Origin: Candidatus Bathyarchaeota archaeon
Lineage (GTDB): Archaea > Thermoproteota > Bathyarchaeia > 40CM-2-53-6 > RBG-13-38-9
Direction: 5' to 3'
NCBI GenBank assembly: GCA_963807605.1
Contig: CAWECG010000003.1
Coordinates: forward strand, 480,001 to 544,000
Length of the DNA stretch: 64,000 nucleotides
Shown here: positions 8,219 to 64,000 of the stretch, one piece after another
Numbering within the stretch: the first letter of the stretch is position 1
Layout of the letters: the number at the start of each line of letters is the position of its first letter
The notes under the pieces: model-generated
What the model was told of the DNA's origin: nothing
Seen by the model: the letters and a program-made list of their open reading frames with translations, nothing else
Databases searched by the model: none
Program-made: the position numbers and the translations under genes

Positions 8219-9127
8219 TCAAGTGCGATCGGTAGGTAGCTTTTTGTCTCTATTCTTCAATGCGACTCTAGGCACTATCTTTTTCTCTAGAGCCTCATCC
8301 ATGCTCCCGCTTCGGTAGCCAAGAAGATCTATGGTCACATACAGAAATCCTAACCTTTTGAGTTTCATTGCCAAGGACTCCATCAATTCCTCGTCGAAAA
8401 AGAGTCTGCGCTCATTTTTCCCAACCTCTATGCGCGCCAAATTCCCGTGGTCACGTATTCGAAGCTCCCTGACTCCAGTCATTTTTCTCAGGAGCTTCTC
8501 GGCTTCAGCTACCCTTCTTATCTTGTCCTCAGTTATCTCCTGGCCATAGGGAAACCTAGAGGATAGACATGCCATGGAGGGTTTGTCTGCGGTGACTAGG
8601 CCAAACATCTTGGCAAGGGCTCTGACTTCAGTCTTCTTAATGCCTGCGTCAGCGAGCGGGCTGAATACCCCGCCCTCAAAAAGCGCTAAGGCTCCTGGCC
8701 TGTGGACTTTCATGTCATCAGCGTTTGTCCCATCAACTATGCATGCGATCCCATGTTCCTCCGCTATCTGCTTTAGTCTCGCGATTAGTTCCTTTTTGCA
8801 GTAGTAGCATCTGTCTGGTGGATTCCTGACGAAGTTTGGATTAGTAGTTTCGTCAACTTTTATCGTTATGTGTCTTATTCCAATTTCTTTGGCAATACCC
8901 TTCGCCTCTTCGAGTTCTCCGTAGGGTAGAGTCGTCGAATTGGCTGTCACCGCGATGGCTTTATTTCCGACAGCCATCTTGGCGATTAATGCAACCAGAG
9001 AACTGTCAACTCCCCCAGACATGGCAACTAGTACGCTGCCTTCGTTTCTTAGCTTATCCAGTACCCTGTTCATCTTCTTTGTCAACATCTTTCGTTGATT
9101 CAATTGTGTTACGCCAGTTTTCCCCAT
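8219..9127 (-). CDS. larE: ATP-dependent sacrificial sulfur transferase LarE
   Basis: PP-loop SGGVDS, RCYYCK, DGTNADD, KPSMACLSSRFPYG and GYRSGSM. Confidence 0.92.
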   Translation of the reverse strand: MGKTGVTQLNQRKMLTKKMNRVLDKLRNEGSVLVAMSGGVDSSLVALIAKMAVGNKAIAVTANSTTLPYGELEEAKGIAKEIGIRHITIKVDETTNPNFVRNPPDRCYYCKKELIARLKQIAEEHGIACIVDGTNADDMKVHRPGALALFEGGVFSPLADAGIKKTEVRALAKMFGLVTADKPSMACLSSRFPYGQEITEDKIRRVAEAEKLLRKMTGVRELRIRDHGNLARIEVGKNERRLFFDEELMESLAMKLKRLGFLYVTIDLLGYRSGSMDEALEKKIVPRVALKNRDKKLPTDRT

Positions 9128-24302: not shown

Positions 24303-25520
24303 TTATTCGCTTTCTAGGAGTAGAAGGTCTGGATCCTCAAGATATTTGATAATCGTATTTACGAATCTCGCCGCCATCGCGCCATCAATCACCCTATGAT
24401 CGAAGGATAGGGATAGCGGGATGATCTTTCTTATGACGACCTTTCCGCCTCGAACAACGGGTTTCTCATAGATTCGTCCCGTGGCCAAAATTGATGTCTC
24501 GGGGTAGTTGATTATCGGCGTTGCGTGAAGACCCCCAATGAAGCCGATATTGGTAATGGTGAAAGTCCCGCCCTTCAGATCTGCTAGGTTGACTGTTCGG
24601 GATCGTGCCTTTTCAGCCAAGTCTTGAATCTCGTTGGCGATCTTGAGTATGCTCTTCTGATCAGCACCCTTGACCACAGGAACAATTAGACCTTCGTCGG
24701 TGTCTACTGCTACCCCGATATTGTAGTACTTCTTGAGAATGATTTCTTCATGCTCATCGTCAATAGAGGAGTTCAGATAAGGATATTGTTTGAGAGCTGC
24801 AATTACAGCTTTGATCACGAAGGGTACGTATGTTAGGTGGATGCCATTTTTTTCTGAAACCTCATTCTCCTTTTCCCTGATCTTGACAAGATGGGTTACA
24901 TCCGCCTCATCCATATGCGTTACATGTACTGCTGTCCTGCTTGACTCAATCATCTTCTTGGCAGTGCTTTTTCTTACGCCCTTCATTGGTAGAGCTTCAA
25001 TGTATCCGTAAAGGTCGTATTTCCTCGCAATCTTGGTAACTTCCAGTTTCCTCCCTTTTTCTTCTGCAAATCTTCTCACATCATCTTCTGTTATTCGACC
25101 TTCCAAACCCGTTCCCTTAACCTGGGAGATCTCGATGCCCAATTCTCTTGCAGCTCTCCTTGTGGCCGGTGTCGCAAGTATTTCGGGAGGTCCTGCTGTG
25201 GCTTCAGGTGCCTCTTCGAGGACGCCGACGACTGAGGCTTTAGGCTGAACAGGAACTAATTCCGGCCTCTCAAACTTCTCTCCAGGCTCCACTATGGTTA
25301 CTAGTGTCTCTCCGACTTTGACGGTATCTCCTTCTTTATGGTGGATCCTTAGTATTCTTCCACCTAGCGGAGAGGGTATCTCGACTACGGCCTTATCCGT
25401 CTCTATCTTGACGATGGGTTGATGTTCCTGAACCGTGTCTCCTTCTTTGACCTCCCACTCTACTATTTCTCCTTCAGTAATCCCCTCACCAACGTCTGGA
25501 AATTTGAAATTCGTTGGCAT
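24303..25520 (-). CDS. pdhC: 2-oxoacid dehydrogenase E2 dihydrolipoamide acyltransferase
   Basis: Lipoyl domain ETDKAVVE; peripheral-subunit-binding domain ATPATRR...GTGLEGRI; DHRVIDG. Confidence 0.93.
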   Translation of the reverse strand: MPTNFKFPDVGEGITEGEIVEWEVKEGDTVQEHQPIVKIETDKAVVEIPSPLGGRILRIHHKEGDTVKVGETLVTIVEPGEKFERPELVPVQPKASVVGVLEEAPEATAGPPEILATPATRRAARELGIEISQVKGTGLEGRITEDDVRRFAEEKGRKLEVTKIARKYDLYGYIEALPMKGVRKSTAKKMIESSRTAVHVTHMDEADVTHLVKIREKENEVSEKNGIHLTYVPFVIKAVIAALKQYPYLNSSIDDEHEEIILKKYYNIGVAVDTDEGLIVPVVKGADQKSILKIANEIQDLAEKARSRTVNLADLKGGTFTITNIGFIGGLHATPIINYPETSILATGRIYEKPVVRGGKVVIRKIIPLSLSFDHRVIDGAMAARFVNTIIKYLEDPDLLLLESE

Positions 25521-57704: not shown

Positions 57705-57872
57705 GCTTCAGCTCAGGGTATTTCAGCTCCTTTTCTTATAACTGCTTCAAGCATTCTCTCTATGTTGTAGTATCCCTGCGGTGTGCACACACAATAATTT
57801 CTCTGTAGGAAGTGGAAAACCTCTAAGACCTCTCTTTAATTAGGCAGATACATTTGCCATCTGAGGACGTGC

Positions 57873-58193
57873 TTAGAATGTAACAATTTTCTCGCAATCC
57901 CTTATCATCTCATACAAATCTTTCATCGTTGACAGTGGACACATTTCAGAGCCTGAAGATTGTCGGATCTTGAGACAGCTGCCACATGCAAATATTTTGC
58001 CAGCGTTATCAACAAAGGAACGCATCTGCTCCGTTATTTTGAATTTATCAGTATCAAGATATTCGCACTCTACTCCTTTTGCTATAAGAAACACCTTTAC
58101 TTCATCACGTTCTTTCAGAGCAAAATTTCCAAACCGAAAAGCATTCCACACGGTTTCTGGGTCGTTCGAGTAGATAACAATGCCAATTTTCAT
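57873..58193 (-). CDS. DsrE family protein
   Basis: ETVWNAFRF, VFL..KGVE, ACGSC and CPLSTM. Confidence 0.88.
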   Translation of the reverse strand: MKIGIVIYSNDPETVWNAFRFGNFALKERDEVKVFLIAKGVECEYLDTDKFKITEQMRSFVDNAGKIFACGSCLKIRQSSGSEMCPLSTMKDLYEMIRDCEKIVTF

Positions 58194-58268: not shown

Positions 58269-59421
58269 CTAGGCCTCAAGCTTTTGTCTAATTCTGCCCA
58301 CGTTCTTGGAGACCAAGTCTACGGTATAGTCAACCTCCTCTTTGCTAGTCCATCTTCCCAGGCTGAATCTGACAGCGCCCAACGCAGTCTCTCTGGATAA
58401 TCCCATTGCTGTTAGTACTGGGGATGGCTCCATGGAGTCTGAGTGGCAGGCTGAACCTGTGGACGCCGCAATCTCTGGAATGCTCCTCAGAAGCTCTTCT
58501 CCGACTAGGCCTTTGAAGCTTAGATTCAGGGTATTCGGGAGCCTCTCCTCTGGGTGTCCATTCAATACCACGGAATCCCCACCCAGCTTGTCCAAGATGC
58601 CTTGGTAAAGCCCTTCTCTGAGAATCCTTGATTCTAGGTTTGAAGTCTGGGAGGTCTCTCTTCGCTATCTCGCAGGCCTTGCCCAACCCTACAATGTAGG
58701 GGACGTTCTCAGTGCCTGCACGTCTGCCCCGCTCCTGGCCTCCTCCATGGATCAGACTGTCCAGCTGTGTTCCGTTTCGAATGTAAAGCGCTCCTATGCC
58801 TTTTGGAGCATACAACTTGTGACCTGCTATGGTAAGGAGATCCACCTCAAGACTGTCTACATCCACGTCAGTCTTACCACAGGACTGGGCTGCATCAGTA
58901 TGGAATAGGATTCCTCTTTCGTTCAGAATCTTGCTGATCTCTTCGATGGGCTGAATCGTTCCAGTCTCATTGTTGGCATGCATAATCGTGACGAGGACAG
59001 TCTCGTCTGTGATGGCTTTCTCCAAGTCTTCTGTGCTTATGATCCCAAACTTGTCGACTGGAAGATATGTGACTCTGTATCCCAGTCTCTCCCTAAGATA
59101 ATTGCATGTTTTCAATACTGCTGGATGTTCTGTCTGAGATGTGACTATGTGCCCCTTCCTTCCGTGTGCAGTTGCAGTCCCTGTGATGGCTTGGTTGTTG
59201 CTTTCTGATCCGCTGCTGGTGAAGACGATCTCATCAGGTTCGCAGCCTATCAGTGCAGCGGTCTTCTCGCGGGCTGCGACTACTGCTTCATGGGCTCGCT
59301 GGCCGTAAACATGGTTGCTTGAAGGGTTACCGAACTCGTCCTTTAGATATGGAAGCATGGCCTCCAGGACTTGTGGGTCTGTGGGTGTAGTGGCGTTGTA
59401 GTCCATGTAGACTGGCTTCAA
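58269..59421 (-). pseudogene. iscS: Cysteine desulfurase (IscS/NifS) with a +1 frameshift near 58627 (possibly a sequencing error)
   Basis: DYNATTP, GNPSS, HTDAAQ and AGHKLYAPKG; catalytic STGSACH lies in the second frame. Confidence 0.85.
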
Positions 59422-59865: not shown

Positions 59866-60273
59866 ATGGAGACTAAGCATGTGAGTGAAAGAAACGGTGG
59901 GTGGATAGCCCTCCTAGTAATACTCTTGATATTTCTGTTCGCAGGCCCCATGATGTTCATGGGAGGAGGTTTTATGGGCCCAGGCATGATGGGTGGCTAC
60001 GGCCCGAACGGTGGGTACCGTGGCATGATGGGCTACGGAGGATATGGCTATGGTTACGGCTTCAACTGGCTCGGCGCAATAGTCCGGATAATCGTATTCC
60101 TGATCTTTCTTGGCCTGATAGCGTTTGGAGTCTACTACCTTGTCGGTGGAGGCAGACCAACACCCACGAGTCCAACACCAAGCAGCAGACCACTTGAGAT
60201 CCTAAAGGAACGATATGCCAAGGGCGAGATAACGAAGGAAGAGTATGAGCAGATGAAGCAGGAACTCTCCTAG
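59866..60273 (+). CDS. SHOCT domain membrane protein
   Basis: Gly/Met-rich GMMGG loop, two TMs and LKERYAKGEITKEEY. Confidence 0.88.
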   Translation: METKHVSERNGGWIALLVILLIFLFAGPMMFMGGGFMGPGMMGGYGPNGGYRGMMGYGGYGYGYGFNWLGAIVRIIVFLIFLGLIAFGVYYLVGGGRPTPTSPTPSSRPLEILKERYAKGEITKEEYEQMKQELS

Positions 60274-61306: not shown

Positions 61307-61421
61307 GACAGAAGACCTAACACCTTCTCCAACCATAAGCCCCGACACCCAGTAATAAGGCCAAGAATCGGCAAAGCGAAATCTAGCGCGCTATTCTTTT
61401 TCTTTGCGTAATGCCTATATA

Positions 61422-61457
61422 ATATAGCCGACGTGCTATATAGCATGCCAGCTATAG
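61422..61457. promoter_or_regulatory. Tandem ArsR-type operators ATATAGC-N6-GCTATA(T/G) x2
   Basis: 61422-61441 and 61438-61457, overlapping the TATA region and the arsR start. Confidence 0.65.
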
Positions 61458-61783
61458 ATGAGATTAGTATAATTAATTTCAAGTCAACTGTATTCGAGGC
61501 ATTGGGCGATCCAAGTAGATTGAAAATACTGGACTTTTTGAGAGATGGCGAAAAATGTGCCTGCGATGTCGTTCCAACTGTTGGTTTCGCTCAACCAACT
61601 GTTTCCAGGCATTTGAAGGTTCTCATCGATTGCGGCATCCTCAAAAGGCGCAAGGAAGGAAACAAAATGCTCTACTCAGTCACATCTCCAAAAATCTATG
61701 ACGTAATAGACTTGGTAGATTCACGCTTTATCGATTCCCTCAGTAGAAACGTCATCGCCAGAATACGACAGGGGTGTCGATAG
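61445..61783 (+). CDS. arsR: ArsR family regulator with alpha3 CxC site
   Basis: ALGDPSRLKIL, GEKCACD and QPTVSRHL. Confidence 0.88.
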   Translation: MPAIDEISIINFKSTVFEALGDPSRLKILDFLRDGEKCACDVVPTVGFAQPTVSRHLKVLIDCGILKRRKEGNKMLYSVTSPKIYDVIDLVDSRFIDSLSRNVIARIRQGCR

Positions 61784-61787
61784 AGAA

Positions 61788-62189
61788 ATGGACAGTGACA
61801 GAATGGAGAGTAAGAACGATGGCTCAGGCGATAAGAAGGTTGGCTTCATATTCTGTGTCTGCACAGGCAAATGTCCAGGATTCAAAGACATGGACATGTG
61901 GGATTTCATAAACACAATTAGAGCAACCTATCCGGTTGAGTATGCATTCATTCATCCCATGCTTTGCGACGAGGATGGAGACCGATTCTTTCAGGACTTC
62001 TTACGAAAAGATAGGAGGTACTTCATAGCGGGATGTGCCCCCATAATGCAGAAGAAACTCTTTCGAGACGCGTTCGCAAGGGCTGGACTCGACATAAACC
62101 AAGACCTTGTCTCACTCGATGTTAGAAACATGACCACACAAAAAGCGCTTGAAACCGTGAAGAAAACTCTGGAAGAGGCGGCAGCTTGA
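61788..62189 (+). CDS. Stand-alone HdrA N-terminal-like Cys-rich protein
   Basis: VGFIFCVC...HPMLC...IAGCAP...FRDAFARAGLD...DVRN parallels HdrA IGVYVCHC...C...AACSP...FR...AGLN...NIRE. Confidence 0.7.
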   Translation: MDSDRMESKNDGSGDKKVGFIFCVCTGKCPGFKDMDMWDFINTIRATYPVEYAFIHPMLCDEDGDRFFQDFLRKDRRYFIAGCAPIMQKKLFRDAFARAGLDINQDLVSLDVRNMTTQKALETVKKTLEEAAA

Positions 62190-62470
62190 CCGAAGAAACA
62201 TACATGGGGGTACCACGAAATAAGATTCCATGGTGCCCGGCCATTAACAGCGAGAAATGTAATCTTTGTGACGGAGATCCACAGTGTCTCAAGTTCTGCC
62301 CGCATGGAGTGTTCGAATACGACAAAGAAAACAAGAAATTAACTGTCAAGAACCCGAATAATTGTGTCGTATTCTGCAGGGTCTGCTCCAAAGTGTGCTC
62401 TGCAGATGCATTGAGTTTCCCAAACAAAAAGGAAATCTTGGAGTTAATAAAAAACGTCAGAGCAAACTAA
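62186..62470 (+). CDS. 2x[4Fe-4S] ferredoxin
   Basis: CNLC....QCLKFCP and CVVFCRVCSKVC. Confidence 0.88.
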   Translation: MTEETYMGVPRNKIPWCPAINSEKCNLCDGDPQCLKFCPHGVFEYDKENKKLTVKNPNNCVVFCRVCSKVCSADALSFPNKKEILELIKNVRAN

Positions 62471-62852
62471 GCATATCATAATCCCATGCAGTGGCATAGG
62501 AAAGGCCCTGGGCACGATTGCGCGTAGAGCCACATACATGGTAACGGATCAGATGTTGCCAGCACAGACAGAAACTACATGTCTCCCATTATTGACAATC
62601 GAAGACAAAGAAGCAGTGGAGAAAGTAAGAGGAAACCCGTGCATAACGATAGACGGTTGTATAGCTCAATGCGCAAAGAAGAACGTGGAGTATCACAAAG
62701 GAAATCTGAAAACAGCCATAAACGTACTCGACGTTTTGAAGCAAAATCCAGGGTTGAAACCTGGTACAGTCCTTGACATCGGTCCAGACGGGGAAAAGCT
62801 CGCCAGCAGAATCTCGGAAAAAATAGTAAAAATCATCGGTGAGACAAGTTGA
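62454..62852 (+). CDS. DGC-domain (putative Zn-binding) protein 1; start appears to be ACG at 62454
   Basis: IIPCSGIG (upstream of the ORF-track ATG), TCLP and IDGCIAQCA. Confidence 0.8.
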   Translation, partial: TSEQTKHIIIPCSGIGKALGTIARRATYMVTDQMLPAQTETTCLPLLTIEDKEAVEKVRGNPCITIDGCIAQCAKKNVEYHKGNLKTAINVLDVLKQNPGLKPGTVLDIGPDGEKLASRISEKIVKIIGETS

Positions 62853-63259
62853 AAATCAATTCAAGGAAGATCGGGCTGATCTCCTGCAGCGGCGAAGACC
62901 TGCCCGAAGGTACGATCTCAAGAGTTGCCACAAGAAGGATTCTCGAACGGCGAGACGACACAGTAACAATATGTCTACCACTGTTTTTGGCAGGAGGGCA
63001 GGGAGAAAGGGATTTCGCCAAAGAAAATCCCTGTATAACCGTCGACGGATGCAAGAAGATGTGTGCCGCCGTAGGCGTAAAGAAGTATGGTGGAGTGACT
63101 CCGTGCTCTACGATAGTGATTTCGGATGTGGTGGAAACCTTTGAGTGTCCGAAACCAACGTCGAAAAGCAAAATCGTATCACAGGATGAAGAACTCGTTA
63201 GAAAGACTATGAATGTTATAGATGAAAAAATCAAGATTGTAAGGGAAGGCAAGAACTGA
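62849..63259 (+). CDS. DGC-domain protein 2
   Basis: ISCSG, ICLP and VDGCKKMCA. Confidence 0.85.
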   Translation: MKINSRKIGLISCSGEDLPEGTISRVATRRILERRDDTVTICLPLFLAGGQGERDFAKENPCITVDGCKKMCAAVGVKKYGGVTPCSTIVISDVVETFECPKPTSKSKIVSQDEELVRKTMNVIDEKIKIVREGKN

Positions 63260-63261
63260 AA

Positions 63262-63675
63262 TTGTCATCGGAAAAGAAAGTGGCAGTAGCCGTGTGCACC
63301 GGAATGGATCAGCCACTCGCGACCGTAGCCAGATACGCTGGATACCACGTCTTGGAAAAACTAAGACCCGACAAGACGGTGCTTCTTTGCACTCCAGCCC
63401 TTCTAGGAGGAGTACAGGAAGATGTGGACTTTGTCAAAAACAACCCTGTCTTGATCATAGATGGCTGCGATGAGAAATGTTGCGAAAAGATCGTCAGGAA
63501 CTCTGATGGAAGAATACGCGCCATGATAAACGTGAAAGATGTCTTGAAAGAACACGGAGAACTACAGCCTGAGTCAAGAGTCAAACTTGGACCAATGGGA
63601 ATGGAACTTGCAGAGATAGTGGGAGACATCGCTGCAAAGAAGGTGGACCAAATACTGGAGGACGAGAAAGCTTGA
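63262..63675 (+). CDS. DGC-domain protein 3
   Basis: AVCTG, LCTP and IDGCDEKCC. Confidence 0.85.
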   Translation: MSSEKKVAVAVCTGMDQPLATVARYAGYHVLEKLRPDKTVLLCTPALLGGVQEDVDFVKNNPVLIIDGCDEKCCEKIVRNSDGRIRAMINVKDVLKEHGELQPESRVKLGPMGMELAEIVGDIAAKKVDQILEDEKA

Positions 63676-64000
63676 ACGAGAAGAAAGTTGCCATAGTTGC
63701 CTGTACTGGAATGGGGAAAGCCCTCGGAACGGTAGCCCGACAGGTTGCATACAAGGTTTCAGATGAACTACAACCGGAAAAAACGGTTTTAATATGCATT
63801 CCATCGATGGCTGCCAACGTGGGAGAATACAGGAATCAAGTGAAGAATTACCCATCAATCATCCTAGATGGCTGTGTGGAAAGATGTGCTACAAAAATCA
63901 TATCTAACAATAATGGCATGATCAAAGGAAGATTTTTCCTCCCACAACTTGTGAAGAAATACGGGTTAAAACCAGGACCCAGAACAAACATTGGACCCGA
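63672..64000 (+). CDS. DGC-domain protein 4, 3'-partial
   Basis: TTG at 63672: NEKKVAIVACTGMG...ICIP...LDGCVERCA; open to the window end. Confidence 0.82.
   Translation, partial: MNEKKVAIVACTGMGKALGTVARQVAYKVSDELQPEKTVLICIPSMAANVGEYRNQVKNYPSIILDGCVERCATKIISNNNGMIKGRFFLPQLVKKYGLKPGPRTNIGP

Follow-up and report, generated by a model that had tools for sequence, protein, structure and literature searches.

The window analysed here is a 64,000-nucleotide stretch of DNA from a Candidatus Bathyarchaeota archaeon (positions 480001–544000 of contig 3, in a 2.65-Mb genome that is 94% complete), and at its right-hand end lies a compact plus-strand cassette of genes headed by an ArsR-type repressor. 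The relatives of this genome in our genome-collection scan are Bathyarchaeia. An earlier note on the same DNA had described seven tightly packed genes at the window end (61422–64000), and all seven were found as plus-strand open reading frames (ORFs), from position 61433 on, with the packing it gave. Reading past the window edge adds an eighth gene that the note had missed, encoding the lipoyl carrier protein GcvH. The features are listed below, with positions beyond 64,000 given as window equivalents.

61416–61444, plus strand: putative promoter and operator (TATA-like element at 61416–61426; 10-base-pair (bp) palindrome GCTATATAGC at 61435–61444)
61433–61783, plus strand: ArsR/SmtB repressor with the alpha3 CxC pair EKCACD (HTH_5 at E 6e-15, 55 bits; NF033788 at 87 bits, cut-off 55)
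61788–62189, plus strand: stand-alone protein resembling the HdrA N-terminal domain, 133 amino acids (aa), no Pfam match, five invariant Cys (C23, C25, C29, C60, C83)
62186–62470, plus strand: ferredoxin, 94 aa, eight Cys in two cluster motifs
62454–62852, plus strand: DGC1, 132 aa from an ACG codon (PF08859 at 56.0 bits over the open frame)
62849–63259, plus strand: DGC2, 136 aa (PF08859 at E 9e-15, 55.2 bits)
63262–63675, plus strand: DGC3, 137 aa (PF08859 at E 5e-13, 49.4 bits)
63672–64067, plus strand: DGC4, 131 aa (L002:3672–4067; PF08859 at E 9e-17, 59.6–61.5 bits)
64064–64534, plus strand, past the window edge: GcvH lipoyl carrier, 156 aa (L002:4064–4534; 4-bp overlap with DGC4)

A 4-bp gap separates the ArsR gene from that of the 133-aa protein, which overlaps the ferredoxin gene by 4 bp; this in turn overlaps DGC1 by 17 bp, and DGC1 overlaps DGC2 by 4 bp, with a 2-bp gap between DGC2 and DGC3 and a further 4-bp overlap between DGC3 and DGC4. 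The 17-bp overlap, as reported earlier, stands only if DGC1 starts at 62454, where the codon is ACG. The DGC1 frame is open from 62451 and contains no ATG, GTG or TTG before its first cysteine; the first such codon, at 62538, would cost the protein that residue. The codon at 62454 is ACG in two relatives as well (loci L003 and L024) and ATG or GTG in all others. Because the ORF is otherwise intact and conserved, DGC1 is probably translated, either from the ACG or through coupling to the ferredoxin gene.

Beyond the window, DGC4 ends after 67 bp and gives way to GcvH, followed by a 445-bp gap, two generic S-adenosylmethionine (SAM) methyltransferase genes, a DnaJ-domain gene and an ICMT/PEMT-like gene. 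The array of DGC genes, which had been expected possibly to run on, therefore ends at four and the operon closes with the lipoyl carrier; these four are also all the DGC genes that the source genome has.

A conserved unit with a lipoyl carrier

The combination of an HdrA-N-like gene, a ferredoxin gene, two to five DGC genes and gcvH is found again in 40+ loci, drawn from Bathyarchaeia, Thorarchaeota and metagenomes, and the earlier supposition that the genes belong together as a unit holds well across these relatives. Where the contig allows it to be read, the order is HdrA-N-like, ferredoxin, DGC1, DGC2, (DGC3), DGC4 and GcvH, with the ferredoxin gene always after the HdrA-N-like gene and DGC3 limited to some lineages (about a third of the loci). 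Scanning the genome collection with the 133-aa family returned 37 loci, which fall in Bathyarchaeia, Thorarchaeota, one Nezhaarchaeota metagenome-assembled genome (MAG) and one Nitrososphaeria MAG, and DGC genes are present in 48 of 201 sampled Bathyarchaeia genomes. Within this family of cassettes the source copy is the unfused, four-DGC Bathyarchaeial variant, with a co-directional ArsR that has its own palindrome and with ACG at the DGC1 start.

The eighth gene encodes what scores as a true GcvH (PF01597 at E 2e-35; TIGR00527 at 132.8 bits against an equivalog cut-off of 115.85), and in its E-S-x-K motif both E75 and the lipoyl lysine K78 are invariant among relatives. In Thorarchaeota, one DGC and GcvH form a single ORF, and in many metagenomic relatives the carrier is likewise joined to a DGC domain. 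A search of 1.8 billion representatives with the Thorarchaeota fusion as query returned about 25 full-length clusters of such DGC::GcvH fusions at 30–58% identity, and the ESM Atlas holds a DGC+GCV_H cluster of 56 members. Every fused relative that was looked up lies in the same string, in which a ~123-aa protein of no family is followed by ferredoxin, DGC::GcvH, DGC and DGC, and this five-gene form is present in distant lineages. The fusion is strong evidence for a physical cooperation of DGC with the lipoyl carrier. With GcvH as the eighth gene, fused to DGC in other lineages, the centre of the system therefore shifts to lipoate.

Genes for LplA-type ligases follow the cassette in loci L008, L023, L052, L053 and L071, and in several lineages it is also followed by a CBS gene and an MbdU-like gene (DUF5714). 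The source genome itself encodes three GcvH proteins, four LplA-like proteins and two 2-oxoacid dehydrogenase E2 proteins (one of them within the window, at about 24315–24998), and since it has these LplA-like and E2 genes, lipoylation is available to it. Neither GcvT (PF01571) nor GcvP (PF02347) gave a match anywhere in the 94%-complete genome.

A second orphan GcvH gene of the same genome lies in a complex-I/Mbh-like operon on contig 4 (420809–430403; L048:809–10403), flanked by a CCG-domain protein, a GlcD-type oxidase that uses flavin adenine dinucleotide (FAD) and an HdrD-like Fer4+CCG protein. This operon resembles the Ehe clusters of Culexarchaeia, where GcvH has been suggested to carry disulfides for HdrB (PMC9723716). 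A conserved protein of 76 aa that belongs to no family (L050:11749–11979, with homologues in about 13 loci) is often encoded between GcvH and an ArsC-like gene; it is absent from the window.

Probable iron–sulfur proteins and DGC paralogs

The 133-aa protein belongs to a family of 443 stand-alone homologues, of which those listed are 118–147 aa long and 66–95% identical and keep the five invariant cysteines. The possibility that it is merely a broken hdrA, which the earlier note had raised against its own reading, can be set aside because of this conserved stand-alone family; a search aimed at longer or fused forms returned none, which is itself weak evidence. The relation to the HdrA N-terminal domain, first noticed from the cysteine pattern, is borne out by profile and by fold. 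The family profile aligns to residues 2–93 of HdrA in the PDB (E 0.004) with a CxC...C...C pattern common to both, and in 201 Bathyarchaeia genomes it weakly matches the N-termini of HdrA ORFs of 560–1160 aa. An AlphaFold2 (AF2) model of the protein (pLDDT 79) retrieves HdrA chains as its top Foldseek matches (7bkd, 7bkb, 8rvu and 5odc; probability 1.0, TM ~0.6), with MvhD chains lower in the list. The thioredoxin-reductase/FAD and ferredoxin domains of HdrA are both missing, and the NCBIfam hdrA model scores 14.8 against a cut-off of 1300.

These features make the 133-aa protein a probable [4Fe-4S] carrier. The N-terminal domain of HdrA binds a [4Fe-4S] cluster that is completed by Cys197 of a partner subunit (PMC9012536); the family-specific fifth cysteine, C29, may stand in for this partner residue. 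The ferredoxin encoded next to it matches Fer4_7, Fer4_6 and Fer4_10 with E values from 1e-5 to 4e-4, all slightly under the Pfam cut-offs.

All four DGC paralogs score above the PF08859 gathering cut-off of 27 bits, and the four cysteines seen earlier in each of them (C[ST]G, C.P, DGC and C) are individually at least 99% conserved in 90 DGC proteins from related clusters. Each paralog group, the DGC2 orthologous group included, has invariant residues of its own, which argues that the paralogs are not redundant copies. The AF2 model of DGC4 (pLDDT 93) is a four-stranded flavodoxin-like alpha/beta fold, with the four cysteines placed where strands 1–3 end or just beyond. Its topology looks like that of the HdrA-N-like model, which likewise has four strands in an alpha/beta fold and cysteines at their ends; homology between the two is not shown.

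Structure searches with DGC4 reached ArsC-type low-molecular-weight phosphatases only at E ~0.04, a profile search of the PDB with DGC found nothing, and a tblastn search of plasmids with DGC4 gave no match. The earlier note had pictured the cassette's products as a heteromeric complex. A complex prediction for the four DGC proteins together returned a score of 0.23 against a mark of 0.32, which weighs neither for nor against a heteromer.

Proposed ArsR control and the arsenic-gene neighbourhood

The GTG of the repressor gene at 61433 lies about 10 nucleotides from the TATA-like element, and an ATG at 61445 abuts the palindrome GCTATATAGC, which L003, L004 and L024, the three closest relatives with a co-directional arsR, keep at the same position. 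Because of this arrangement, the true start of ArsR is likely the ATG at 61445, predicting a leaderless transcript, a repressor of 112 aa and an operator placed over the start; we infer from the sequence that GCTATATAGC acts as that operator. About 39 of 42 loci have an ArsR gene next to the cassette, in most cases divergently oriented. The usual layout is an arsR-acr3 operon facing away from the cassette, and in these relatives another palindrome, the perfect 16-bp CAATATTTAAATATTG, lies between arsR(-acr3) and the cassette.

The EKCACD motif of ArsR was read correctly in the earlier note, and its CxC pair is nearly invariant among 22 cassette-adjacent ArsRs. These form three subfamilies with identities down to 27%, all of which keep the pair. 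The motif aligns with ELCSCE of the ArsR that heads the source genome's own acr3 operon, and the pair is missing from an unrelated ArsR encoded 1.6 kb upstream within the window.

The proposed link to metalloids is supported by the company that the cassette keeps in relatives. About 25 of 49 loci have an acr3-like gene no more than a few kb away from it, and the three cassette-adjacent acr3 genes that were checked pass the TIGR00832 equivalog cut-off; ArsC-like LMWPc genes lie near about 12 loci, and Thioredoxin_3/ArsP and Redoxin/DsbD genes near several. The parts of the cassette are also found separately in such settings. In genome G162, arsR-arsR-acr3-gcvH-DGC-DGC form one string from which the iron–sulfur (Fe-S) genes are absent. 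Members of a second HdrA-N-like subfamily form HdrA-N/ferredoxin pairs beside ArsR without GcvH and mostly without DGC, and some of these loci also carry ArsP/Thioredoxin_3 or an ArsC-like gene. Singleton DGC genes occur in ArsR-Thioredoxin_3-ArsP-DGC-Redoxin-DsbD clusters. Each module is thus linked to ArsR and ars genes independently.

In the source genome the canonical ars operon lies on contig 4 (23509–26150; L069:4509–7150) and encodes the ArsR with ELCSCE, an Acr3-like transporter (270 bits, slightly under the cut-off of 282.8), a protein of 119 aa without a family assignment and an ArsC-like LMWPc protein. An MtrA-like gene lies upstream of this operon. The earlier note had proposed to read downstream of the cassette for acr3, arsP or arsM; none of them follows it in this genome. 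The two downstream SAM methyltransferases were considered as ArsM partners and rejected: their scores are generic, the 445-bp gap separates them from the cassette, and they show no conservation with it.

Two inverted repeats of about 230 bp, 94–95% complementary, flank a 6.7-kb block that contains the whole cassette (57722–57950 in the window and 64618–64845 as window equivalents; L049:1722–1950 and 8618–8845). The left arm takes in the 3' end of a DsrE gene, and the right one falls in the intergenic gap downstream of GcvH; the repeats may be a scar of inversion or recombination. Also within the block are DsrE, a remnant cysteine desulfurase, a second ArsR and two membrane or secreted proteins. 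The NifS/IscS-like desulfurase (58269–59421, minus strand) seems, from its translations only, to be split by a frameshift, with the N-terminal frame at 58345–59421 and the C-terminal part, which carries the active-site SACHS, in another frame at 58269–58595. The gene at 59866–60273 encodes a 135-aa membrane protein rich in Gly, Met and Tyr, whose C-terminal stretch is SHOCT-like in look, and is followed by a gene for a 256-aa Pro/Thr-rich protein that matches no Pfam family.

A lipoyl-centred reading, its rivals and known systems

The reading that we favour, at what we judge to be even odds, is that the cassette belongs to the arsenic regulon as an accessory module under ArsR control, with a dedicated lipoyl-GcvH at its core. 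The earlier interpretation survives in it as far as the conserved unit and the metalloid link are concerned, and is corrected in the extension of the array and in the overlooked GcvH. Mechanistically, we infer an arsenite-induced thiol relay that would be fed by ferredoxin and centred on the lipoyl carrier. ArsR would occupy the promoter palindrome until arsenite, binding at the CxC pair, released it. The ferredoxin and the free HdrA-N-terminal-type protein, if both carry Fe-S clusters as their motifs suggest, would form an electron-input module, and the lipoylated GcvH and the DGC proteins, each with one four-Cys site, would form a thiol module. Low-potential electrons would pass from the first through or to the DGC proteins, which would mediate between the Fe-S proteins and the lipoyl arm and so keep that arm in its dithiol state. 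The dihydrolipoyl arm and the DGC thiols could then capture As(III) and hand it over to Acr3; alternatively, the dithiols could serve as the reductant for ArsC-type or thioredoxin-like arsenic enzymes, or for arsenicals. Either route would shield the cell's other lipoyl proteins.

Lipoic acid is the classic target of arsenite poisoning. That anaerobic archaea and bacteria should use it, in protein-bound form, directly in arsenic defence by way of a ferredoxin-fed Fe-S route is a more tentative proposition than the accessory role itself, and we regard it as possible, with the odds somewhat against it.

Several observations weigh against the arsenic reading or parts of it. In the source genome no ars gene adjoins the cassette and the acr3-ArsC operon lies on another contig; the ArsR of that operon is 36% identical to the cassette ArsR, and the GCTATATAGC palindrome was looked for at the acr3 operon and is absent there. 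In the CVCD box of helix alpha3 the cassette ArsR has two cysteines, where the classical As(III) site of R773 has three, and CxC pairs can sense other soft metals or redox state as well. Few genomes carry the full cassette, and its distribution is patchy (6 of the 201 Bathyarchaeia genomes sampled, in five families), as is usual for accessory resistance genes. Either module occurs without the other, so electron flow from the Fe-S proteins to GcvH and DGC is not obligatory. As to the DGC proteins themselves, Pfam labels the domain zinc-binding, a search with Foldseek and VIA for a solved relative gave only generic flavodoxin/Rossmann-like folds (best 3pu6_A, Z 9.1), and homology to the HdrA-N-like protein has no sequence support (hhalign probability 2%).

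The alternative that survives best, though we consider it unlikely, is a general dithiol/disulfide-stress system, in which a ferredoxin-dependent reductase would keep a lipoyl-GcvH electron carrier or other protein dithiols reduced, with ArsR as a thiol-reactive or redox sensor and arsenic as only one trigger of several. It draws on the redox setting of the second orphan GcvH, with its complex-I-like operon and CCG and GlcD proteins, and on the Culexarchaeia proposal that GcvH carries disulfides for HdrB (PMC9723716). Thioredoxin, Redoxin and DsbD genes recur near the cassette, and HdrA-N/ferredoxin pairs adjoin thioredoxin-like genes; the repeated close association with genes for Acr3, ArsC-like proteins and ArsP, along with the shared operator, points instead to arsenic specifically.

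Sulfane-sulfur or polysulfide handling on the lipoyl carrier, in the manner of sHdr-LbpA, is improbable. The parallel lies in a GcvH-like lipoyl protein with dedicated ligases (PMC6067878), and sulfur-related genes are at hand, with DsrE and the cysteine desulfurase remnant in the same 6.7-kb block and rhodanese and DsrE_2 close to locus L074. However, neither DsrE nor TusA is conserved with the cassette, which also lacks the HdrB/HdrC CCG proteins and a flavin-containing HdrA, and the carrier scores as a true GcvH whose neighbours in relatives are ars genes.

We consider it slightly less probable again that the cassette serves as a buffer or chaperone for soft metals (Zn, Cd, Sb, Pb), with the DGC proteins as plain metal binders under a CadC/SmtB-like sensor. 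NCBI as well as Pfam names DGC a putative zinc-binding domain, the four cysteines form a single site at the strand ends in the model, and CxC alpha3 sites are known in Cd/Pb/Zn sensors of the ArsR/SmtB family. This account leaves the ferredoxin, the Fe-S domain and the DGC-fused lipoyl carrier unexplained, and the P-type ATPase beside some copies is a proton-type pump (TIGR01647) rather than a heavy-metal one. Least probable is accessory making or repair of the lipoyl cofactor on GcvH, for instance by supplying sulfur or electrons, induced when arsenic damages lipoyl proteins: the LplA-type ligases and MbdU-like DUF5714 gene that follow the cassette in several lineages, and the fusion that brings a Cys site beside the lipoyl domain, would suit it, but the cassette has no radical-SAM lipoyl synthase and most copies have no adjacent ligase.

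If the arsenic reading is true, the cassette would assign a first role to DGC and would bring a new cofactor into arsenic biology through a lipoate-based, ferredoxin-driven branch of resistance in strict anaerobes; it would also account for the orphan GcvH genes of archaea without glycine cleavage. Neither DGC (PF08859) nor the free HdrA-N-like family has an assigned function, and here both belong to a tightly conserved gene set that includes a lipoyl carrier and is headed by an arsenic-type sensor. That the cassette is undescribed, as the earlier note believed, is borne out by a literature search, which found no description of it, of the function of DGC (PF08859, COG4273, IPR014958), of the free HdrA-N family, or of GcvH combined with ars operons. 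Its parts are small soluble proteins and directly amenable to experiment.

Among known systems, ars operons with thiol accessories (ArsR-Acr3-ArsC, those with the metallochaperone ArsD, and ArsP with thioredoxin-like proteins) share with the cassette the alpha3-CxC ArsR and small Cys-rich products, and the cassettes of relatives adjoin acr3, ArsC-like and ArsP genes or share a regulatory region with them. Unlike those operons, the cassette has six structural genes that belong to no described ars family, and in the source genome it stands apart from the acr3 operon. The sHdr-LbpA route of sulfur oxidation combines an Hdr-like complex, GcvH-like lipoate-binding proteins and dedicated ligases (PMC6067878). 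Like it, the cassette has a GcvH-type lipoyl carrier outside glycine cleavage that is genetically linked with Hdr-related Fe-S proteins and that, in several lineages, comes with LplA-type ligases of its own. The differences are that no CCG (HdrB/HdrC) or FAD domain is present in the cassette's eight genes, that its HdrA part is the free N-terminal domain only, that DGC replaces any known catalytic subunit, and that it lies under ArsR and among ars genes rather than sulfur-oxidation genes.

The HdrA of the methanogen HdrABC-MvhAGD complex (5ODC, 7BKB, 8RVU) has its N-terminal Fe-S fold and CxC...C...C pattern in common with the 133-aa protein, which differs from it in lacking the FAD/thioredoxin-reductase and ferredoxin domains and the partner Cys197. 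The GcvH of Culexarchaeia (PMC9723716) is, as here, an orphan within a redox cluster of an archaeon without glycine cleavage; there it is proposed to act with HdrB/CCG proteins and a membrane hydrogenase-like complex, whereas in the present cassette DGC and ArsR accompany it.

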